Positions 12,126-52,156 of a stretch of DNA of 64,000 bases are shown here, piece by piece. The stretch spans positions 186,001-250,000 of the forward strand of contig NC_090598.1 in the NCBI RefSeq assembly GCF_000497125.1, in the 5' to 3' direction. Numbering within the stretch: position 1 is the stretch's first letter; every line of letters begins with the position of its first letter. This DNA is from Spironucleus salmonicida. Lineage: Eukaryota. The notes under the pieces are model-generated. The model saw only the letters and a program-made list of their open reading frames with translations, had not been told where the DNA came from and searched no databases. The translations under genes and the position numbers were made by a program.

Positions 12126-13826
12126 TCATTTATGCCCACCTAGTAAGGCAGCTATAATTAACGCTTGCTATTCTAAGGGCATACCTATATTTTACTGCTG
12201 ATCCGATCTTTACTATTGCTTAACCATGGTTTCAACGTCCCGTTAAGCCTTTTCTAAGTCGGTCAAAAAACTTTCAGGATACTTCGGCTAATGTTCCTCC
12301 TCATCGGGGAACAATTGAAACATCTTTGGATCATATACAAAATCAGGATCTAACTCAGGAATCGCTTCAGGAGGATTACTATCCAAAAATTATTAAAGTT
12401 CTGAATCTAGAGATGTTTCCGGCGATTCATATGCATCTAGAACGTCCTGATCTATTTCTGAGCTAAAGTCAGACAATAGATCGTCAGATTCAGAATTTTC
12501 TATATTTTTATTTTCTTATTTTTCTTGCTTCTTTCTAATCATCTCACGTACTTTTGGGTTAAAAATCTTTTTAATAAGCTCCTCAGATTCACGGGTTTAA
12601 GATTCCAGTTTTTCTTACTCATTCCGCGCTTCATCAGCTTTCTACTACTAATATTTTGCTCGTACTGCTTCATTTTCAGCAGTTTCTCGTTACAATTTCT
12701 CCTTTTAACGGTTTTAATTTTCGATAGTCCGTAATTAAAATTCCTGCATTTCTGCTAGGCTAGGAACATCCAAATGGGCTACTTTATTTGTTCTTAATTG
12801 ATTAATTTTACCTTAAAAGAGCTCTGTATTTGATTGGAAAAATTAGTGAAAATAGACGTAGACACGTAGCTCATCAGGACGTGAGTTTGGTACGATATTA
12901 TTTTCAATAAAGTCTAAGAAACGCTTTGAATCAAGTTTGTATTACTAAATTTGCCTTAGATCGCACGAAAAGCACTTATGACAGAACTCAAAATTGAAGT
13001 CGAAAAATACGGTTTTGCATTTTTTGCAAATCAGCTCATTAATAATTACGTCCTAATTGAAGATGCTGAACTAAACATCAGATTCAACCCATTTTAAAAC
13101 TTTTTCACTCCTTTGAGAGTATTCTAAAACTGGGTCGTTAGCTCCCTTTTTACACTGGAAGCAGCTTCCATCAAAGTCTGCGAAGCACTGAAAATGCGCC
13201 TTACAACCACAACCCATATTCCTCCATGCATCTCCGGAGACGAAAGGATCAGTGCAAAAAACACACTTATTGGGACTTTCAGCGTTACACAATTTGAGCA
13301 GCTGATGATGGCATAGCTGGCAGGCTCTGCAGTGCGCAAACTAGAATTTCGGGCCGCAGAGTGAACACAATTTGATTCGTTTGCCACACTTGCACGTGAA
13401 ATCGCCGGTTTCGCCGTCAAAAACAACGTTTTCAGCATCGGCTTCTGGCAGTTCGAGACCGCATGAGCAGAGATTTTGAGTGATATTAGGGGAGATTTTT
13501 CTGGTAAAGGTGACAAAATTTTATAGGTTTGGGGCTGCGTTTTCAAGGTAGGATGGCAGGTCGTCTGGTAGCGATAGAAAGGACGGGAAGTTGTTAAAAT
13601 CGTCAATATAAGTACGGATTGAAGCGATTTTTTACGTGTAGTTATCCAGAATACACTAGCTGGGGTTGAGAAGTTTTAATGGCATAAGTGGAATATGCTG
13701 CTTCTGAATGAAAGAGGATGCGAAATAATTTAAATCCTTCGGCGTTAAATGGCCAATTATTAGTTTTTCAAATGATGTAGAGATATTTTAAGGGTTTGTT
13801 ACGTAAAATGTCAACTCTAACGACAT
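12126..13826 (-). CDS. RING/zinc-finger protein, Pirh2/RCHY1-like, with coiled-coil/acidic C-terminus
   Basis: Cys-rich segment, then RING CVFC..GCGCKAHFQCF..SCFQC, then zinc ribbon LICKKC..FCHKCFSC; frame open to TGA 12126. Confidence 0.72.
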
Positions 13827-17468: not shown

Positions 17469-18161
17469 TCATTTTCTAGATTTTTTAGCTTTATCTTCCC
17501 TGTAGCACTTACCAGAGTCAAACCACTATCCACAAATATCAGTTTTACTATACAGCTTATCACAGAGATCCTTAGCATCTAAAACACGCTAGTCGCTACT
17601 ACTACTACTCTCGTCATCAATTTCATCATCCCTAATTTTTTTCTTCTACTTTCCACCTCTGGTACTCCTAGTATTGTGCATATGCTATATATTCTCTTAT
17701 TATTAAAATTATCTTTCGTCAATCAAATGCCGTTACTTCATCTCTTCAATAAATTTTTAAAAGTCAGTTTCTGTATTTGCTTTAATAATTTCCTTAATTT
17801 CCTCAATATCAACACCTAAGGCAGCAGCTTCCTCACTAGATAGACCTGTTTCTGCGTTTTCCCAAGCTCTAATAATTTTTTATAGAATATCCACATGATG
17901 AGCAGAAGGGACACGGAAAATAACTAAAGTTTAATTTATATCTATATCTGTATCAAATCTTAATCTTTAAGTTTCCATGCCTTCAAGGGCAAACTCCAAC
18001 ACGGCTCTAGCATTAGGTGCAAACGCATGCTTGGCAATGATAAATTAGTGTAAAAATGCTAACTTTATAGAATGTCCCATTGGAATTTTAATTTCAAATG
18101 TTGAAGATCTATCAAAAGCAAATTTGTAATAAATTTTATGGTCTTAGTTGACCTAGTGCAT
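17469..18161 (-). CDS. DWNN (ubiquitin-like) domain protein, Mpe1/RBBP6-like, short form
   Basis: N-terminal IYYKFAFDRSSTFEIKI...LVIFRVP matches the DWNN pattern (YYKF...RRVP). Confidence 0.6.
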
Positions 18162-26342: not shown

Positions 26343-28511
26343 ATGTCAAAGAAGACTGCATTTGATAAAACTAGAGAAGTATTGGCTTTGCCTGAACGCG
26401 AGTATACATTGGCAATACAATCATCTTTCAATATAGTAGTCAAGAAGGCACATCCTTCATTCTACACTCGTGCTAGCAATTTTATATCTAATCACAATCT
26501 TAATTTAAAGTAAACTGAGGCTATGATCTCAGCTCTTATTGAAAATGATAAAATAGAAGATGATTAATTAATGGTGAGATCTGGTGTCGGCGTTGTTATT
26601 ACAAAAGAATAACTTGAACAAGGATTAGCTGATATTTTAACACCTGAACTTGAAAAGTTTAGAGCCCTTTCATAGATTTCATAGAAATTCCCCTTTGCTG
26701 ACGGTATCTTACTCAAGTCTGTTGTTGAATAAGCTTTTGAAGGTCGTATTGTGCAGAAAAAGATTGTTGAGAAATAAGACAAGCCTAAAGATGCTAAAAA
26801 GGCTGCAGTACCTACAGGTATGACATTAGAACCATTAGATGTTGTTTACAGTATAATACCTCAAAAAAATAGATATGAGTAGTTGCCTGCAGAATAGCAG
26901 AAGCATGAATAATTCTTAAAAAGTTTAGGAGTTAATCTTTTAATGAGATTTCCACCTGAACCAAATGGTTATTTACATATTGGTCATGCTAAATCTATGT
27001 TTATTAACTTTGGATATGCTAAATTAAATGGAGGTTTAACGTATCTTAGATTGGATGATACTAATCCTGAAACAGAATGTGATGAATACGTTAAATCTAT
27101 TATGGAGACGGTCAGCTGGTTAGGTAATACTCCTTTCTAAGTCACTCATGCATCTGACCACTTTTAGCGTCTTTATGATATAGCGGAAGATTTAATCAAA
27201 AAGGGCCATTGCTATATCGATGATCAAAAGGCCGAAGAAATTTCTGATTTCAGGGAGCGCCGTATTGATCCACCGAATAGAAACCGTCCAGCAATGGAGT
27301 CATTATCTCTCTTCAGAATGATGCGTGCCGGTGTTTTCCCGGAAGGATCTCTAACTCTCCGTATGAAAATGAATATGCAATCAGATAATCCAAATATGAG
27401 AGACCCTATTGCTTATAGAATCAAGTATCATGCGCACTAAATGTCAGGAGATTCTTGGTGTATTTACCCATCTTATGATTATACACACTGTCTTTGTGAC
27501 GCCTTTGAGAATATTACCCATTCAATTTGCACAATCGAATTCAATATTCGTAGAGAGTCATATGATTGGCTTACACATATTGTTGGTGGATATAGACCTA
27601 TGCAATGGGAATTTTCTCGCTTAAATATCACCTACACTGTTATGTCTAAGCGCCGTCTTTTAATATTAGTAAAAGATAATTTGGTATCTGGATGGTCTGA
27701 TCCACGTATGCCAACTCTTGTAGGTCTTCGTAGACGTGGATTCACTCCTACCATTATTAATACTTTCTGTCAGGCAATAGGTGTTTCGCGCAACCCTCAA
27801 ACTATTGAATACTCTCTTTTAGAGCATGTTGCTAGATAAGAATTTGAACGTGAAGCAGATCGTGCTATGGCCGTAGTTGATCCTATAAGAGTTGAAATAA
27901 TTGATTGGGTCGAAAAATCTATTGACTATCCTTTGCACCCAGCACTTACTGAAAGAGGTATTGAAAAGATCAAATTGTCAAAGGTTATTTTCATTGAAAG
28001 AGTAGACTTTAGCGAAACTTAGGCTGCTTAAGGGTTTTACGGATTTGCACCTGACCAGCCTTGTGCACTAAGATACGGCCCTAATTTATATATGAAGGAA
28101 ATTGTTAAAGGTAAAAATGGCTAGATATCTGTAAAAGCTAGCTTTTCTGAAGACGTTGAAGCTACTAAATAACTCATGAGAGATATGAAACTTAAGAAGA
28201 AAACACTACCTAGACTGCATTGGATATCTGAAAATGACAGTAGAGTTGCGGAGGTTCGTTTATATGATGTTTTATTCAAAAGTAAAGATCCTATGGCGGT
28301 TGAAGATTGGTTATCTGATATAAATCCTAAATCTATAGTTATTTAGGCTAATGCAAGAGTGCCTAGATATGTTGCAGACTCTTGTAAGGATGGTAAAAGC
28401 TACAAGCATTATTAGTTCGAAAGGTAGGGGTTCTTTGTAGTTGATGAAGAATCGACTAATAAAAAACCTATTCTCAATCTGACTGTTGCTTTGAAGAAAG
28501 ATTATGAATGA
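26343..28511 (+). CDS. QARS: Glutaminyl-tRNA synthetase
   Basis: [68 protein letters not shown]. Confidence 0.96.
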
Positions 28512-28558
28512 TCATTTTTATCTATATTATATACAATATAATAATTTATATTATTGAA

Positions 28559-30880
28559 ATGAAAGCACCATTAATTATTGGAGTTTTTGAGAATGAGAAT
28601 TAATTAAATATAGTTAAAGAAGAAATTAATTAATATTTTCAGTTTATAGTGCATAAAACGGTATATGATAGTTCTTAATGGATTCTGTCTTGCTATTTCT
28701 TTTCTCAGTCAATTGATCTTTAATCTTTACGAAAAAACTTTAATACAATTATTATTAATCCAAAAGGCATAACTAAATATCCAAAATATATAACTAAATA
28801 GTAATTTACAATATGCTTTTTCCATGAATAGGAAATTAACAAAATTTAATAAGAGTATAAAGAATAGTAGAATTCTAAACACATAATAACATTTGGATTA
28901 GTTGGTCCACAATTAATATTTACTTTTATTAGTCAGGTGGATGTTGAGTTATTTATTAGTTACCTTAAATAATTTGAGAATCTTGTTAGATATAATTAAA
29001 TACAAGATGAAGAAAAATATTATGTATCTATGATATACTGCTAAGATATAATAACGTTAGGTGAAATTAAGTAGGATTTTGCTGGGAAATGTTATTATTC
29101 TAAGGAAAACTTATAAAAGGAGCCATTTTTCTTATGTTTTGATATATTTAGGGCTTTAAGTTTCACTATCAATGATAATACTGAAATTATTAAGTAAAAT
29201 AAAATATAAAAATAAAATCTACAAAATCTACAGAACGGTAAACGGACTGGACGAATACTTTTTAAATTATCCGATAAATAATTAGGTATGGCAATTTATT
29301 ATGACTTGTGCCTGTTGTATCGAAAAAATATCATGGAAATAAAGTATTTATGGAAAAATGAATAATTCTATATAGCAGGGTATTTTAATCCTAGTGTTAA
29401 TATCAATGCAATGTATTATACTTTAAAAATACCGGTTAATCGATATTGTCATACAAATTTTGATATACGTAAACCACCATCATTTATCGACGAAGGTATA
29501 TTCTATAGTATGCTTTTTGAGGAAGATATTTGTTAAAAAATTCTAAATTATCAACCAAAATTATCTTAAAATACTATTTTGCCAAAAATCATTATAATGA
29601 ATTTAACTATTATATAGCATGACTAATTATCTTATATTCTATAAAGCTTATTTGCTGATAGACTGTAATTAACTGCAGTTACCTCATAATTTGGTGCCTG
29701 TTATATTGGTATTTTATTTATAGAAAAATATTTACCTGGCAAAAGAGCTGTAGATTTTTTAAAGGATTATGGGTGTGAGTTTTGTTAACAAAAAGGAGAA
29801 GGGTTTAAACCAAGAGCATAGTTTCTTATAAATAAACTCATGTTTTCGCAATAAAATCTTCTGTTATTAGAAGCTAATGTTTCTTCAAAATATGAACCTA
29901 AAATTATAGAAAATTCGGTAAATATAGACAAACTTACTATTAAACCAGCTATTTTTGATAATCAGAAAACAATTATAATAATAGATTTTGAAGCTTATCT
30001 GTACCGAAACGATATATTTATAGCATCTGAATTTGCAGCAGTTTTTGTAGAAGATAATAAAATTATTAACACTTTCCATTCCTTGATTTCTCCATCACAG
30101 TAACAATTAGAAATTCTAGCTGATCCAAGACATCAGCAAATCATAAAAAATACAACATCATTGACTGCACTAAATCATACAAATGTTTAAGGTAACACAT
30201 TAAACCAAATTATCGAATAATTCACCATATTAACATAACAGTATCCGAGTTTTATTTTAACAGCAAAAGCACCTTAGTTGGAAATACAAATTTTACATAG
30301 TATAAATTCACCATTTTAGTATAAAGTAACCGATTTTCTGACACTTCGTCCATCCTTAACGTTTAAATCAGCGCATTCACTGAATAGAGAAAAATTTTAT
30401 TGTAACACACATACGAAGGGTAGATAGATAGGTTTGTATGGATAGGCTGTTCATTGTGCATTGGATGATTGTGTATACCTCTCTAAACTTCTTATTAATG
30501 AGCCTGTCGCTGAAACTAATTTTTTCGGAGAGTTTTAAAATAATTTTATTATTTCCAATAATTTACAAGTCTAAAAAAGCTTTACAACGAAATGGCCAGA
30601 ATTAATTGCCCCAAAATTCGTATTCTCATGCGAAAATAATGAGGATTTAACTATAATATTATCAGATTTTTAAATAATTTTTGATGCCAGGTACCTCATA
30701 AAGAAAGTAGAACAGTAAGACTAGCTGCTATGCTCTATGTTGTTTGTGTAGTCTGACGTACCACTTTACTGCTGCAAGCTTTTTAAATAAGGAGTAGAGA
30801 CTAGATTTTTCAATGGAATCGAGAATATTCCATAAGAGCTTATGTTCACAGAGCATGAGTTTTAGTAGATTTATCAATGA
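28559..30880 (+). CDS. 773-aa protein with a DEDDh/Maelstrom-like nuclease domain in its C-terminal half
   Basis: IIIDFEA (ExoI), IASEFAAVFVE..FHSLISP, AKAPQLE, YCNTH...HCALDDC. Confidence 0.72.
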
Positions 30881-33102: not shown

Positions 33103-34497
33103 ATGTAAGTCTAATCTTTATAGTTATTTGAATAATTTAAATTAGCTATCTACAAGCTCACATCAAACAATAAAAAGGCTACTAGAGCTCATTAGATATT
33201 ACCTAGATACCGGCGTAGAAGATAGATGTCTTATAATTTTCATAGACTTCCTTAATTTCTTAGACCAAGGGCGCTAACAGAAACTAAGTCTGATTCTTTA
33301 ATCTATAAAACAAATGCACCAAAAATGACTAGAAAACATCGCAGGGCTACACTCAAAGACCGGCTTCATGTTTATTTAGCAAAACGAATGAAATTCTATC
33401 ATTGCTTCCCTTTCCGAAATACGTAGAAGGTACTTAGAAGAGCTTGTTAATAAGCACTTATTCCTAGAACTGATGGTTATATTTTACTAGAAATTGACGG
33501 TGAAATTCTGACGTATGGTACCTAACTGCTTAATAATAGTATCCCTGTTGAAATTTACAATTTAGGTAGCATCAAACTTTTATTAACTTATGAATTATAT
33601 GAATAATAAACCTTATAGATACTATAGTCTCTCTAAATTTAATCAAAGCCATCAGATTTAGTCAATATCCTTTTATATGGTGAGACTGTAAACATCTTAA
33701 ACGAAGTAATTAAGTCATAAACACACCCGTCAGACAATATTTTTAATCACACTGACGAGCTGTAATTCGCGGAGAATATCATTCCAATATAAGAAATTTT
33801 CGCTAAAGCCCCAATTTTGTAGTAACTTCCTCCAGATATTTAATCGGAGGTTAACTATCTTAAAAATCTTTAATTCCACAATTCAATTGATTTAAAGTTC
33901 ATACGTACCGTAAAACACAAAAAAATATATCCAAATCCTCTAACTCTACGAAAAATTGAATCAACAAAATCTCATTTCGAAATAGCAGTTCATTTCAATG
34001 CTACATTTGCATCATTATTTTTATCTAAGGAAAATGCTTTATAATTTATCAGAAAAACAACTAGAATTGGAATTCCGCTTGCAGGTGTGCTAGAACGCCG
34101 CTTTTTACAGTTTGAGACATAATTTCTCGATCTGTAGTAATTTGTTACATTTAATGGCGTATAGTTACGTAAAATTTGTAATAAAGAGCTAGGAATAGGA
34201 CCGAAGAAGTAGTTTCATCCCAGTTAGAAAAAACATATTTAGTAAGTTTATTTTGAAAAATTTCTAATTACAGATAGCTGTGATTGGGAAATATAGAAGA
34301 AGAAACTTGATACTAAATATAAAGCAGAAAAACCAGAAATTGAGACAAATTTATCGTCTATTGAACCATTTTTTGGTGTTTTAAACTATGGATTTTCTGA
34401 TGATAAATGTGGATTTATAGATAAAGCATACAGATTGTCCGCTGGTCGGGAGAGCTTTATAGGGAATGGAAAGCCTAAATTGGGAATGATTATATGA
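33103..34497 (+). CDS. POP1: RNase P/MRP subunit POP1
   Basis: HQILPRYRRRRQMSYNFHRLPQFLR and RLHVYLAKRM match the POP1 N-terminal motifs (LPRHMRRRAMSHN..RLP; HAKRF). Confidence 0.85.
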
Positions 34498-37423: not shown

Positions 37424-39028
37424 ATGAGTGCATATTCTCCCGAACGAAGAACTGGATTCAACACACTGTATTAACAGTATTTAAAAGACCCAGAAAAATA
37501 ATACTATATCAAATTATTGTAATATTAACAGTGTGACGAAAATTTACTATGGATTGTTGATAATTTAGTAGCTGCTACTGCTCCCCTTGACGAAACTCGC
37601 GAAGTATTTGAAAAGTTTTATAAAATTCTATCTGATAATTTAATAAAGGTGACAAAAAGTATGTAATATAATTCGTTAGAATTTATATATGCATAAAAAC
37701 CACCTACTGTAGTACGTGATATAATTTCTATGTGTGCTTATTTGCAGATAGATATTTAATCACCTTATGTATGGTTATCATTAGTTGCGCTATCTTTAGG
37801 TTTACCTTCTGGTTGGAGTTATGATGACGATACTGGTGAATATATATGTTTAAAAAATGAAGAAAGAACAACTGTTCACCCCTCTGATTATATTCTTAAA
37901 GAGTGGAAAGATAGACAAATTTAATAAACAGGTCATTAAATTTTAGTTAAGTTGACCGAGTAAGAATAATTTAAAGTTGGACCTTCCTTTATTGTTGTTT
38001 ATGATTTTAAAGATATGAGAACTAAATTTGTTGGGAAAATGGATATGTTTTAACCTGATCTTATATCAATACCAATTTTAGATGAAGAAAATATTAATTA
38101 CCAAATTAACAATCATATCGAGTTAGCTGGAGCTTTGATTGAAGCAAATGAATTAGTGTTTTAAGGGGCCAGTGGTGATGTTACATTATTATAAGATCGA
38201 GGTGTAGATAGTGAAATAAATACAGTCTAAGAAACCTATAACATTATGATTTAGCAAAATGAGTAAAAGGCTAAGTCTAAGTTTGTTAAATAGTTCGGTT
38301 ATAATAAATAACGACTGTTATAGAACGACTAAGAACATTATCTATTAAAATTACAATAGTCTCTCCTTCCAGATGTTCTTTTAGATAAAAATTTTATAAT
38401 TTCAAAATTATTACCTCCCCAACCTTCATAGTCTAGATTTTTAGCATATTAGTTAATTGATAAGCGTAAATATCAACTTATTTTCGCATAATCCACTTAA
38501 CTTGTGAATCCTGTAGTTTCCTAGCTTGCAAATGTTGAAAATCAGCACCAAATTAGACTAACAGTATATATTACAAATCCAAATCACACCCAAAACTAAT
38601 AATTACAATTATCTACTACAAATGCTTCAAAATTTGACTAATCAATGACTCCATAGCTGACAGTTTTCAACGATTTAAATGGTTATGTTTATCCATTTGA
38701 GACACATGCAGAATTGCCTTCTTTATATGACTTTTATATTGGCAAGTCAGTTTCTTGTAGAGGTATTAATTTTATATTGACTCAAAATGACCCGAAAAGT
38801 CAAGAATGGTTTACAAGTTGCGGCAAAATTTTGAAGTAAATGTGTGAATTTATATACGATAAGAAAAGTAAAAAGAAAGTTACAATGCCAAGATTCGACC
38901 AGGTTTTTACAGGCAGAGAAGCCATGAGTATAGCTATTGAGAAGCTTATCAAATATTTTTATGCATGTAGGCTTAATGGAATTGAGGTGCATGCAGATGA
39001 ATTGGCTGCTGAAGCTTTGACGGGCTGA
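37424..39028 (+). CDS. CEP164-like WW-domain protein (534 aa)
   Basis: DIISMCAYLQIDIQSPYVWLSLVALSLGLPSGWSYDDDTGEYICLKNEERTTVHPSDY resembles the CEP164 N-terminal WW region. Confidence 0.62.
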
Positions 39029-47437: not shown

Positions 47438-48316
47438 TCACTTTTATAGTTTATTTGTTAATGTTTTTGGTTAGGTTATCGAAGTTTATAACAAATCATC
47501 CATATTAGCATATATCGAATTTGATGAACTATTTTGGTTGTTATTGACTTCTTATAATTTAAAAGGAGTTCTTTTATGTTTTGCTTATTTTGGTAATTGA
47601 ATTATTTTCTAACTGTCTGATATTTCTAACAAATCTTTAAGGTCTGCTTTTTTTAATTCAGATATAGAATCTAACTTTTAACTTTTTAAGTACTATATCT
47701 CTAATTGATCTTCTAAAACAATTTCACTTTACCGAAACTCTTTTTCTCTATTCTAATACTCCAATAAATCTTGGAGCTATTTCTATTTTGAATAATTTAT
47801 AGGCTTCTTGTAATTATTTAAATTTTTCAATCTATAGTTTCTACATAAGTTCTATGTCTATTTATTTTGCAAATCTTTAATTATTGTTTCACTATCTCGT
47901 GACAGGATGAAGGAGTCTAATGTATCAAAATTCCATTAAAGAGTCTGTAGTAAAAATTATTTCTGATTAAAGTCTTAAACCTTTTCCACGTGTACTTTAA
48001 ACATTTAATAAGATATCGTATTTATTTTAGCCAAATCAATAGGTACTTTTGAATAGAATATCGATTCAGGATCAGCTCTCGCAGATAAAAACGCCATTTT
48101 AAATTCTGGGTCTTAAGAGTAGAAAAAGGCTCTTTCTTCTAACTCTGTAATAGTTTGCTAATAGTCATTATTTGATACAACCTCTTGAGGGAAGTTAATA
48201 TTATAAAAAAGTTTTTAGTCATATGAAAATTAAGAATTTTTATTTAAGAACAAAGGATCTTTGATAAACACCTCCTTCTGCTTATAAAGTTAATATTATA
48301 AATCTTAAATAGACAT
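47438..48316 (-). CDS. Coiled-coil hypothetical protein (292 aa)
   Basis: Start and AAG-TGA in frame. Confidence 0.6.
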
Positions 48317-48350
48317 TCACAAAATATTTTTTATTATATAATAATATTTT

Positions 48351-48773
48351 ATGTATAGAATGACATATGAATTAGATGAAACCTCATCGATATTGCTTAT
48401 ATAAAAGATTTTGACAGAAAATAAGATACCTTAAACATAATAAAATTAACAACAATTTACTGAAGCATTAACTTTATGTAAACTTTCTAAATTTTTATCG
48501 TAAAGTTTGCTGTAATTACTTATTAAAGACTTTTCTGTTTTAAAATACCAAAATCTCTTATTTACAATTATATCTTTATAATCTTCTATAGACTATACTA
48601 CTTGTTTAACATTATTACTAACAGAAGATCCTTTATATATTGAATTCGGTAAATCACTTTTATTTTTTTTAGATGATTCACAAGAATCGTTCGGAGTTAA
48701 ATGTTTATATGGTTAATAGCCATAATATAAAGATATAATTAATATTCCTTAAATAATTAATTAACTCGAGTGA
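48351..48773 (+). CDS. Hypothetical protein (~140 aa; start may be 48360)
   Basis: Open frame ending GAG-TGA. Confidence 0.55.
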
Positions 48774-48885
48774 GCCTTAATATTAATGAAGTAATACCAT
48801 AATAATTCATATTTTAATGAACAGAGAAATATAAAGTATTCTATTCCTTATATACAATATTATAATGTTATAAAAAGTATATTTA

Positions 48886-49908
48886 ATGCAAATCTAAGTT
48901 CATAATTTAAGTATTGATGATCAAATAGTGGATAGAAAAGGTCAATTTGAAACACCAAAAGCAATTTAGCGTAAATTTACCCAATAAGCGAGCAAGCTGG
49001 TCGACCTCTTTAAGCCGGTGAAAGTGATCACCACGAAATTCCGCAGGACGTACCTTTGCCACAACTCGCACCAGGACTCTGTGGTTGCCATATCAATGTT
49101 TAGCAGCAGCATAGTAACCTCTTCTCTGGACGGGGTAGTGCGCTTCTGGGGATACACAGACCACGTTCTGCTCCAGCAAAGTTTCGTGGTATTCAAGGCG
49201 GCCTGCGTCAAAGTGTGGGAGAGGGAGGGCAGCTTCCTATTTTTGCTCTTGGACGGCACCATCTGCACTGAGGATCAAACCCAAGTTGCGAGGGTGGGAT
49301 TGGTGGAGCAATGCGCCGCATCCGGTGACTCGGTACTTGTGGTGGAGCGAGGGGGCACTGTGCACCACCTAGGCATGGCCGGAGCAGCTATCGACCGCTT
49401 CTGCCCACAGATCCCAGAGCACAGTACAGTGACCTGCTGCCACCTGGTAAACGGGTCCGCGTTCCTTGGTCTAAGCAACGGCACGGTGGTGGTGCGGTGC
49501 GCGGGTACTCAGCCCGAACAGGCCAGCGTATGCAAATCCTCAATTATGGCTATCTGCGCCGTTCCAAAGGGCGAGTTTTCCATCCAGGTATCACAGGCCA
49601 CCCAGCAGCCCACACTGGTGATCGTGGTATCGCGAGACGGTTCCATCTTTGCCATCGAGGAACTGGGGCTGAAACTGGTGAAGTCCTTCGCGAGCGGGCA
49701 TACAGTGGTGTCCGCGGGAGTTTCCGACGGGCGGGTCGTTCTGGTACACCACAGCAGCATTCGCGTGTTCGCTATCACCAGCCTCTTCACACAGCACCAT
49801 GCAGTAACTCCCAGCATCAGTGGTCTTACTTCTGCGTGCATGCTAGGAAGCTAGCTATGGGCAGGCAGTGGGGATGGCGCGCTTGAGGTAATAGAAATAC
49901 TGGACTGA
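48886..49908 (+). CDS. WD40/beta-propeller protein (340 aa) lying in a GC-rich island
   Basis: ATG 48886 is in frame with track ORF 49018..49854 and reads through TAG to TGA 49906; SHQDSVVAI..IVTSSLDGVVRFW, FLGLSNGTVVV, VVSRDGSIF, WAGSGDGALEV. Confidence 0.8.
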
Positions 49909-49960
49909 CTTAGTATCATCACTGCTCGAACCCGCCGTAGTTCTCTTCTTCGCCATATTA
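48990..49960. other. GC-rich compositional island
   Basis: Hand-counted 60-nt lines give 48-65% GC (e.g. 39/60 at 49321-49380) against visibly AT-rich flanks. Confidence 0.92.
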
Positions 49961-52156
49961 CTATGTTCCGTCATAATCAATATTTCCTTCAATTCCTCCA
50001 AATTATGAAATTCCTGAATTCAGCTAACCATGTGATTGGTTACTCAAATTTTAAGACATGCCAAAATCGTCCCTATAAACTGCAGTAGGCTTATTTGTTT
50101 CAATAAACTAAACCTAGAATGATGGTACAGATATATCACGTTCTGAAAGTCGTACTTTAACGTTGTTACCTTCCATAGACAACACAATACCTTCTCTTCC
50201 AATCCAAGACGGCGCCATTACACGAACACGTCGACCTCTATGGGAATCATTCTTAGAAGAAATAGAGCGATCAACAAAATATCCTGGATCTTCTACTAAA
50301 ACTCCACGTGAATCAATAGCAGTTACACCAAGTCGTTCTGTATTTCCAGCAGTACTTAATTTTATAAAAAGAATAGAAGACACATTGTGATTGGTTACAC
50401 CAATAACTTTTCCAGTAGCATCTGTCTTTTTTACGCGTACAGATGAAGCTAAAGCTACAGCCTAAGGCGGGGATGATCCATCTTTGACAATACGCTTCAT
50501 TCTAGCAATAATGGGCTATATTTAATCTAATCTAAGTTTTATCAGTTCATCCTCTATAGTAACAACTTAAGCACAAGTGTAAGAAAGGTTTGTTATTATA
50601 GCTTCTGTTCCTGCTGGAATATTAACCATCTAATTTCTAGCAAATAAAACACCATTATAAATCTTCTCCATAAATCCAGTAAAGGTATCAGTTGTTTCAA
50701 TTGCTTAGTCAGTGTAAATCTAACAGGATTTATCTAGTATTTCGTTAAATATATCTGTGGTAAGTTGCATAAGAAACCTACCGTCATCGCTTTACTCTAT
50801 TTTTCGTAATACACCAATAACATTTTCATAAGGTCCAGAAATTATTTTTACTCGTCTACCTTCCTTGATATATTTATTCATTTTTATTCTTTCTAGAGAA
50901 ATCTACTAATTATATAATTTCGAATCCTAATCTAAGATTAAAATAGAATATGATAGGTTTTATGGATTAACTTTTTTAACAATTCCAAATTATCCAGCAA
51001 GGTCTATTTCTTCTCCACTCCATTTATATGTATATTCTCTAATTACGACTGTGTCTTCTTCCACAAGTGGGCAGAGAGATGAATCTTTAGTCGAAGACTG
51101 ACGTGCTTCATATTATTAAGAATTATCCACTGTTTATAATAAATGCTTAGTAGCTAATTGTTCCGGAGTCGGATCTCTAAGGTTATCAACTTTTACTGGA
51201 AGCACGAGAAGACCCTGAAAGAATGTGCATTAGATTGCGCTAAAGAACTCCTCTTTGAAATATTAGTCTCCTTTAGACATTTCTACATATTACTCAAGCT
51301 TAATACGGTGAGGTGCCACTTTCTCGTCTAATTCAAGCGATCTAGTGCATGTAAGAGTAAGAACTTAACATTATCCAGATTATTAATCAATTGTATGGAC
51401 CACACATAATGCACCTCCATATGTGTTCTAAAAACCTGCCCGCTTAATTATTTTATAATCTCCCTTTTTCACTGTTTAAACAACTTGTGCCTTAATTTTA
51501 GTAACTTATGGTTATTCAGCCCGTCTAACTTATTTAATTTCCCGAAGTACTACTGGACGTGATGTAACTGGCTAACGACCATAATACCGTTTGAACGGCT
51601 AAACGAATCCTCTAAGTGCACCTTAACCAGCTAAAAGTTCTACTTAATCCATTGAATGAGCTTCTACATAAAGACTTTCTGGATCTCTAGGGTTGACCAT
51701 TGCGCCAAATACTTCTGCAGAAAACTTGGTGTATTCTGTATTTTTTGTATGTTCACCATAAGCTAATATCCTCGTAAGCTCAGCAAGACATTGATATCCA
51801 GTACCCCTTCTGATAGGAATTTTATATAAATAGGGGTCTTCTTCTTCTACTTTAATAATGGTCTCAACATCATCAATAATATTATCAACTCTACCCATTT
51901 TACGCATGTCAAAATTATCTCTTTCTTTTATCTCTCTTTCCCGATCAAGTCTTCTTAATTCGTTGACATCAACAGCTCTTCCCTAGTATAAATCATCTTC
52001 TTCACCTGCAATAAAAGAATCTGATGCTGCGCTTGCAGACGCAGATTCATCAGAATACTCATCAACCCCATCTATATCATCACCAGATATTGATTCTTGA
52101 TCAGAATTTTCAGAATCTTCTGTCTTGCGAATCTTTTTTCCTTTACCAGGGGCCAT
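49919..52156 (-). CDS. SPT5: Transcription elongation factor SPT5
   Basis: Acidic N-terminus, NGN-like DPYLYKIPIRRG..SLYVEA, several KOW-like motifs (GRRVKIISGPY, GRRVRVMAPSWIGREGIV). Confidence 0.82.

Follow-up and report, generated by a model that had tools for sequence, protein, structure and literature searches.

A GC-rich segment shared by two paralogous genes of Spironucleus salmonicida: a candidate tract of GC-biased non-allelic gene conversion

GC-rich duplications and converted gene pairs

In GC-biased conversion of multigene families, mismatches in the heteroduplexes formed between copies are repaired toward G:C, raising the GC content of the copies that convert most. Cases of this kind are said to have been described in mammals by Galtier and co-workers in 2001, by Galtier in 2003 for histones and by Marais in 2003. 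The mechanism proposed below is the same, but those cases are mammalian, whereas the present one concerns a diplomonad, and no diplomonad counterpart was found in the literature searched. Nor did the literature yield a report claiming GC-biased gene conversion for Spironucleus, or a measured repair bias for any diplomonad. Diplomonad recombination and sexuality are debated; S. salmonicida is, to our knowledge, binucleate and tetraploid, and we know of no sighting of sex in it.

Gene pairs that have been partly homogenised were treated by Carson & Scherer 2009 (BMC Evol Biol 9:156; PMC2720389); in the accessible part of their paper, converted regions are characteristically higher in GC, notably at third codon positions (GC3), than the flanking or diverging segments, which is explained by GC-biased repair of heteroduplex mismatches. 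As far as that text goes, their pairs resemble the one reported here: two paralogues have one segment homogenised and the remainder diverging, with GC and GC3 higher in the homogenised part. The present contrast is far larger (57% versus 28% GC, GC3 of 0.67 versus 0.2); the host is a compact, AT-rich, intron-poor protist genome, with no orthologue series for dating; and the genetic code differs, with the change of TAA or TAG to CAA or CAG (TAR to CAR) as a synonymous class of AT-to-GC sites.

The published genome of S. salmonicida has 33.4-33.5% GC, with 25.4% in intergenic DNA (PMC3916229 and PMC9509377, accessible parts of both). Xu et al. 2022 (Sci Data 9:585; PMC9509377) found 44.7% GC in its duplicated regions, defined by matches of at least 2 kb and at least 95% identity, versus 30.7% in the rest. 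According to the sections of that paper open to us, these regions comprise 19.2% of the assembly and are mainly single-gene stretches, and the regions of cysteine-rich surface-protein genes have raised GC and SNP levels, with gene conversion possibly involved. The locus reported here belongs to the same genome, and its repeated DNA is likewise GC-richer; however, its 961-bp tract is under the 2000-bp match threshold (PMC9509377), and the pair consists of an orphan, putative propeller gene amid housekeeping genes, not of a surface-protein family. The same sections are silent on tracts shorter than a gene, on the sharpness of edges, on effects of codon position, on TAR codons and on biased repair. 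An argument for GC-biased conversion is absent from the available text of PMC9509377 and PMC7641422, and that of the 2014 genome paper (PMC3916229) contains nothing on GC islands or gene conversion.

The GC-rich island and the gene that carries it

The window analysed here is a 64-kb stretch of DNA of the diplomonad S. salmonicida, whose open reading frames (ORFs) were translated with NCBI table 6 ('Hexamita nuclei'). In this code TAA and TAG specify glutamine, and a TAR-to-CAR change is a synonymous first-position change from AT to GC. The features of the locus, in window positions, are the following.

48865..49908, + strand: orphan gene, putatively for a WD40-like beta-propeller; current model P0004, 347 aa, 100% identical to the ORF
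48886..48961, + strand: AT-rich 5' coding part, diverged from the paralogue, with homology still recognisable (8/26)
48962..49922, no strand: shared tract with 2 differing letters; propeller body, stop, 10-bp spacer and the convergent gene's stop
48988..49954, no strand: GC-rich domain as fitted by likelihood, displaced rightward from the shared tract by ~26-32 bp
49328..49359, + strand: the two differing letters; A and T in the window, G (D171G) and C in the contigs
49919..52156, - strand: convergent KOW-domain gene (ORF; Pfam KOW 22.8 bits, cut-off 22.3)

The segment 48962-49922 (961 bp) contains 55.9% GC, while all other 961-bp segments of the 64 kb have a mean of 29.7% (sd 4.2, maximum 40.3), so that the island stands at z = 6.2. 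In 200-bp steps, GC is 0.19-0.24 over 48200-48999, 0.52-0.63 over 49000-49899 and 0.34-0.38 past 49900, and the 100 nt to the left of the tract have 23%. A likelihood fit with two change points over 48000-51000 placed the GC domain at 48988-49954 (967 bp), with 56.8% GC inside versus 28.0% outside; its left edge falls within 48977-48996 and its right edge within 49936-49972 (2-lnL intervals). Along the gene, GC3 forms a plateau with a steep left edge and no dome. Runs of 100-bp windows with at least 50% GC occur seven times in the 64 kb, the island run measuring 993 bp and the other six 102-235 bp; a second island of similar kind is absent from the window.

A single + strand ORF (48817-49908, table 6) crosses both edges of the island with its frame unbroken; the start is at 48865 in the current model and at 48886 in that of 2014 (P0005, 340 aa). 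In the longest ORF, TAR glutamine codons stand at 48832, 48871, 48895, 48967 and 48985; from 49018 to 49851 there are 14 CAA or CAG codons and no TAR, and one TAG follows at 49852. The 37 other ORFs of the window with at least 200 codons use 1069 TAR and 367 CAR codons (74% TAR; 1069/1436), against which the single TAR and 14 CAR of the GC-rich part give a Fisher p of 7e-8. Among leucine codons TTR falls from 53% elsewhere to 11% in the GC-rich stretch (p = 1.5e-5), and among arginine codons AGR falls from 60% to 27% (p = 0.03). The loss of TAR glutamine codons is one part of a general AT-to-GC shift, shared by leucine and arginine, and is unspecific to the reassigned code.

The in-frame part 48961-49905 has values of 0.58, 0.44 and 0.67 for GC1, GC2 and GC3, respectively. 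The other ORFs of the window have a GC1 of about 0.37, a GC2 of about 0.30 and a GC3 of 0.16-0.38 (about 0.25), and the 5' part of the island gene itself has a GC3 of 0.17-0.20. The rise is ~0.42 for GC3, ~0.21 for GC1 and ~0.14 for GC2, the order (GC3 > GC1 > GC2) that a drive on composition should produce when protein constraint opposes it. The protein is affected too: GARP residues make up 21.8% of the tract versus 15.2%, and FYMINK residues are halved, 16.5% versus 33.9%.

Neither the eight families of direct repeats nor the ten pairs of inverted repeats found in 48500-50400 bracket 48962/49922 or 48988/49954 (0/8 and 0/10), which speaks against a mobile element. GC skew remains low across the island, from -0.05 to +0.19, and does not switch polarity, with values near zero over 49000-49900; cumulative skew has no island-specific inflection, and around the island skew tracks gene orientation. 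The interval 48000-51000 gave no Rfam match at E <= 1, and a structured RNA gene is thus unsupported.

A first-pass annotation of this DNA, made from the letters alone, had described most of these properties, namely a sharp GC island of ~1 kb inside a gene, the absence of a frame break, TAR codons at 48895, 48967 and 48985 followed by 14 exclusively CAA/CAG codons in 49018-49851 and a TAG at 49852, frequent TAR-Gln in the neighbouring genes, a spill of GC into the last codons of the convergent gene, and the lack of terminal repeats or target duplications (none of the families in 48500-50400 brackets the island). All of these hold, as does its view that the island is positional and sub-genic rather than a whole transferred gene. 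Its two gene names fare less well. 'WD40 gene' agrees with the Atlas model of the protein (pTM 0.68), which matches models of WD40 propellers with TM 0.63-0.72 over about residues 43-347, that is, the part encoded by the tract; Pfam propeller matches are all sub-threshold (Beta-prop_WDR75_1st 20.9 bits versus a cut-off of 45, WD40 (PF00400) 12.9 versus 27), and matches to PDB sequences are weak (Ika8, 2.8e-10, among designed and natural WD40 propellers; Ytm1, 0.0035). A single-sequence AlphaFold2 model of P0004 was unusable (pLDDT 35, pTM 0.25). Identity as a WD40 propeller is plausible but weakly founded. For the convergent gene, called SPT5, one borderline KOW match stands, while the SPT5 KOW5/6/7 matches of Pfam are below cut-off and PDB sequences gave no match.

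Two loci sharing one tract

The contigs of four public runs were compared with 47800-51200 using 31-letter words. In the assembled contigs of both DNA runs (X1 and X2), 48962-49922 stands alone as a 961-bp contig: two distinct contigs run into it from the left flank, ending at 48991, and two leave it toward the right flank, starting at 49893, each overlapping it by 30 letters. With words of 31 letters, this layout means that two loci are identical over 48962-49922 and differ at 48961 and 49923. The junctions of the window on both sides are present in the contigs of X1 and X2 with no other letters; the pairing of left with right flanks rests on the long-read assembly. Word depth is 26.1 in the tract versus 11.9/10.8 in the flanks for X1, and 275.8 versus 173.9/174.5 for X2, depth not being equal to copy number. 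Within the tract, the window differs from the run contigs of all four runs at two letters only, 49328 A>G (D171G) and 49359 T>C; both are differences of A/T versus G/C, and at both the window has the AT allele. The second copy is absent from the window, as a self-BLAST of 48900-50100 matches itself alone.

The loose end of the alternative left-flank contig translates to the N-terminus of SS50377_22382 (P0002), and the same gene emerges from protein searches. A word-indexed search of 5.8 billion proteins returned one cluster, a hypothetical protein of S. salmonicida, with three members: the current model P0004, the 2014 model of the same gene (P0005, SS50377_18444) and P0002, which is a distinct gene, SS50377_22382, formerly SS50377_18431. 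The 2014 and the current annotation each contain two models with unlike N-termini. From residue 50 to the C-terminus (residue 363), SS50377_22382 is identical to the window protein save for D171G, and the bodies of the paralogues are 99.8% identical. The AT-rich N-terminus, residues 24-49, aligns without gaps with 8 identities in 26, seven of which fall among the first 13 residues. Only ~1 in 10,000 of 9708 random 26-residue windows of the window proteins equalled this match (mean 1.6), and the start codons are equally far from the tract in both genes; being far above chance, and together with the equal start distance, the match indicates that the 5' ends are diverged homologues. At the DNA level, the 30-letter loose end of the paralogue's 5' flank has 11/30 matches in register, not significantly more than the null of 9.0 +/- 2.5; after a one-base shift 16/30 were counted by eye, a value suggestive of an indel. 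The 3' flanks of the two copies have no likeness at 90% identity or more, and the mosaic is thus demonstrated on the 5' side only. The two-copy mosaic is close to certain, and its sequences point to an old duplication carrying a young tract, the mosaic pattern of concerted evolution.

A control was made with the other genes of the window. Fourteen genes and the KOW gene were queried, two of which were missing under the ORF starts used; all 13 of the other genes found in the protein collection are without a paralogue at 90% identity or more, the lone two-member cluster being an alternative start of one gene. Taken as one case against 13, this gives a Fisher p of ~0.07 by our own arithmetic.

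In the runs X5 and X6, which belong to one study and are guessed to be RNA, single contigs join the 5' flank of the paralogue, the tract and the right flank of the window, and the 5' end belonging to the window copy (48662-48957) lies outside all of their contigs. The paralogue may be the transcribed copy, with the assembly graph following the covered branches; the layout says nothing firm on expression or on flank pairing.

Identity and GC content coincide to within ~30 bp but not exactly: compared with the identity tract, the left edge of the GC domain lies ~26 bp and its right edge ~32 bp further to the right, offsets that fall outside the 2-lnL intervals. The first 28 nt of the identity tract are AT-rich (32% GC), and on the other side 49923-49960, 38 nt of unique coding sequence outside the tract and within the last ~14 codons of the convergent gene, have 50% GC. 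In the last 15 codons of this gene (49922-49966) GC3 is 0.67, versus 0.07-0.33 in the preceding seven bins of 15 codons. Simple homology-limited conversion does not predict the offset of ~30 bp; either the end points of the last event were unlike the long-term average, or an older homology extended into the tail of the KOW gene.

Origin of the GC richness

The reading that we favour, with a probability of about 60%, sees in the island the stretch over which an ancient gene pair has been homogenised, enriched in GC by GC-biased non-allelic gene conversion. An ancient duplication within one chromosome would have given two copies of a gene for a WD40-like propeller; their opening ~25 codons would have drifted apart, staying AT-rich like the rest of the genome, and the ~960 bp coding for the propeller would have been recopied between the loci by non-allelic gene conversion. 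As a result of recurrent copying only two letters would differ. While paired for conversion, the copies would have their mismatches repaired with G:C favoured over A:T, and the tract would climb to a GC equilibrium far above its flanks; third codon positions would gain most, first and second ones less, with the amino-acid composition dragged along, and the replacement of TAA/TAG glutamine codons by CAA/CAG would be a further AT-to-GC change. The diverged flanks would block heteroduplex formation, so that the edges stay sharp.

The island is the sole part of the gene that is near-identical to the paralogue, which ties the rise in GC to conversion from copy to copy and not to an allelic hotspot or a landmark. 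From this mosaic and its composition we infer that conversion recurred and that biased repair caused the rise. A single recent event would account for the identity equally well; recurrence is assumed as needed to reach 57% GC, and the two differences between the copies are too few for a substitution spectrum. Among the candidates named in the first-pass annotation, a GC-biased conversion or recombination hotspot stands with respect to conversion, which would be copy-to-copy and probably biased, but falls as an allelic hotspot. The two-copy nature of the island, invisible from the window sequence, had escaped it.

A serious rival, though an unlikely one on balance, is that the segment was GC-rich beforehand, as a region of a GC-rich gene family or through a local mutational regime, and was pasted once and recently into the other paralogue by one conversion or partial duplication. 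Two differences in 961 bp fit one recent event, GC3 climbs steeply on the left and then stays level instead of forming a dome, and the offset would follow naturally from an exchange limited to 48962-49922 in a window copy that was GC-rich over 48988-49954. On the other hand, the source of the GC richness is left unexplained, a copying event independent of the GC block must have ended within ~30 bp of the GC edge on both sides, and the genome-wide link between duplication and GC becomes a coincidence. Moreover, there are no further family members that could serve as a source, one cluster being present among 1.84 billion representatives.

It is very unlikely that the propeller body was taken up from a foreign, GC-rich source, whether bacterial, algal or from another eukaryote, joined to an AT-rich 5' end of native origin and subsequently duplicated, as the first-pass annotation had considered for part of the gene. 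The composition is strikingly foreign for this genome, TAR-Gln is nearly absent, and relatives in other diplomonads are undetected: a full HMMER scan of 1.84 billion representatives found no orthologue in another species, other diplomonads included, and, beyond the paralogue cluster, four matches with E of 5.7e-5 to 8.6e-4. Three of these were examined with Pfam, which gave RCC1-like propeller repeats in P0007 and P0008 and C-JID/ZFYVE21_C in P0006. However, the only strong match in the protein searches is the S. salmonicida paralogue; outside this species there are weak propeller matches at most and no donor-like relative, and a distant blastn of the tract against 72,556 plasmid records gave no DNA match. 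Three in-frame codons of the tract, the TAG at 49852 and the TAG/TAA at 48967/48985, are readable only with the host code, and homology links the 5' ends of the two copies.

A similarly slim chance is given to selection on the sequence itself, which would have raised GC through, for instance, the codon choice of a highly expressed gene, the structure of the mRNA or the residues that a propeller requires. The coincidence of the island with the folded domain of the Atlas model would fit, as would the high word depth of the tract contig in the guessed-RNA runs, although such depth cannot rank genes. Against this, no other ORF of the window is above GC3 0.38, including those of the tRNA synthetase, the NAD synthase and the KOW gene; all three codon positions and the amino-acid make-up are shifted, the raised GC runs on through the 10-bp spacer into the tail of the neighbouring gene, and the near-identity of the copies is left unexplained.

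A chromosomal element (replication origin or chromatin landmark) or an assembly chimera, both raised in the first-pass annotation, is most improbable, although the island is sharp and unique in 64 kb: for an element there is no skew switch at the island and no Rfam match, and it would have to coincide with a paralogous tract, while against a misassembly both junctions are present, with no other letters, in the contigs of the independent short-read runs X1 and X2, and the current and 2014 annotations join the same AT-rich N-terminus to the same GC-rich body.

Under the conversion reading, an apparent anomaly becomes a case of ordinary but unusually clean concerted evolution: the island would be a very clean GC-enriched tract of non-allelic conversion, the bulk phenomenon of GC-rich duplications being already in print. 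Since a tract of 57% GC, its edges defined to some tens of bases, stands out in a genome of 30% GC, this genome would be well suited to measuring how often non-allelic conversion occurs in diplomonads and how GC-biased it is, and the conversion reading offers a mechanistic account of the published, unexplained GC richness of duplicated DNA in S. salmonicida. Flags of 'foreign DNA' based on composition would catch conversion tracts in this genome, and missing TAR-Gln codons are not evidence of a standard-code origin.

More tentatively, and with the odds rather against it, a homology-dependent process may drive every actively recombining repeat of the S. salmonicida genome to high GC, strongly enough to rewrite amino-acid composition and to purge TAR-Gln codons within a kilobase. 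GC islands with very sharp edges would then show at which sites homologous recombination takes place and at what frequency, with the two-copy propeller gene as the cleanest minimal example, and the one-sided offset of ~30 bp might be a record of the directionality of the copying mechanism.

The neighbourhood of the island is ordinary, comprising genes for SBDS-like, Glu/Gln-tRNA synthetase, NAD synthase, SHIPPO-repeat and KOW-domain proteins.

Contigs and gene models across the two-copy tract

The GC-rich tract is near-identical in the WD40-like propeller gene and in its paralogue (P0002) elsewhere in the genome, and contigs from X5 and X6, two public runs from one study that are presumed to be RNA, cross it at 48958-51200. 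In both runs these contigs pass from the 5′ flank of the paralogue through the tract into the right flank of the window copy, and no contig of either presumed RNA run covers the 5′ end of the window copy. This joining pattern may be a graph artefact of the two-copy repeat, or it may indicate that the paralogue is the sole transcribed copy. The gene models differ at residue 171 (window 49328), which is Gly in the 2014 model (P0005), as in the paralogue, and Asp in the current assembly (P0004); the two copies may have been collapsed in the older short-read assembly or, alternatively, there may be a polymorphism at this position, either between the copies or between alleles.

Convergent, overlapping and abutting genes

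At the tract, the propeller gene and the convergent KOW-domain gene are separated, stop codon to stop codon, by only 10 bp (window 49906-49921):

49906-49908, + strand: TGA stop codon of the propeller gene
49921-49919, - strand: TGA stop codon of the convergent KOW gene

Since contigs of the presumed RNA runs also traverse both genes without a break, their transcripts probably overlap at the 3′ ends. Two other pairs of ORFs overlap or abut:

26343-28511: Glu/Gln-tRNA synthetase ORF
28508-30880: next ORF
33103-34497, + strand: ORF of at least 200 codons
34498-37359, - strand: ORF of at least 200 codons

The first two share the four letters ATGA (28508-28511), with three bases common to stop and start; the 2014 S. 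salmonicida genome paper (PMC3916229) gives 47 pairs of overlapping genes. The last two meet 3′ end to 3′ end at 34497/34498, with no spacer.

GC content and glutamine codons elsewhere in the window

By GC content, 13153-13494 (about 49%) ranks second among the stretches of the window; it lies where an orphan 566-aa ORF (12126-13826, - strand) is rich in Cys and Gly. The encoded protein is the sole member of its 90% cluster, and thus the high GC probably derives from amino-acid content and not from duplication.

Across 37 ORFs of at least 200 codons in the whole window, TAA or TAG encodes Gln at 1069 of 1436 codons (74%). In one ORF, 17469-18161, every Gln codon is TAA/TAG (16/16), and in one, 37509-38654, CAA/CAG outnumbers TAA/TAG (28 vs 25).
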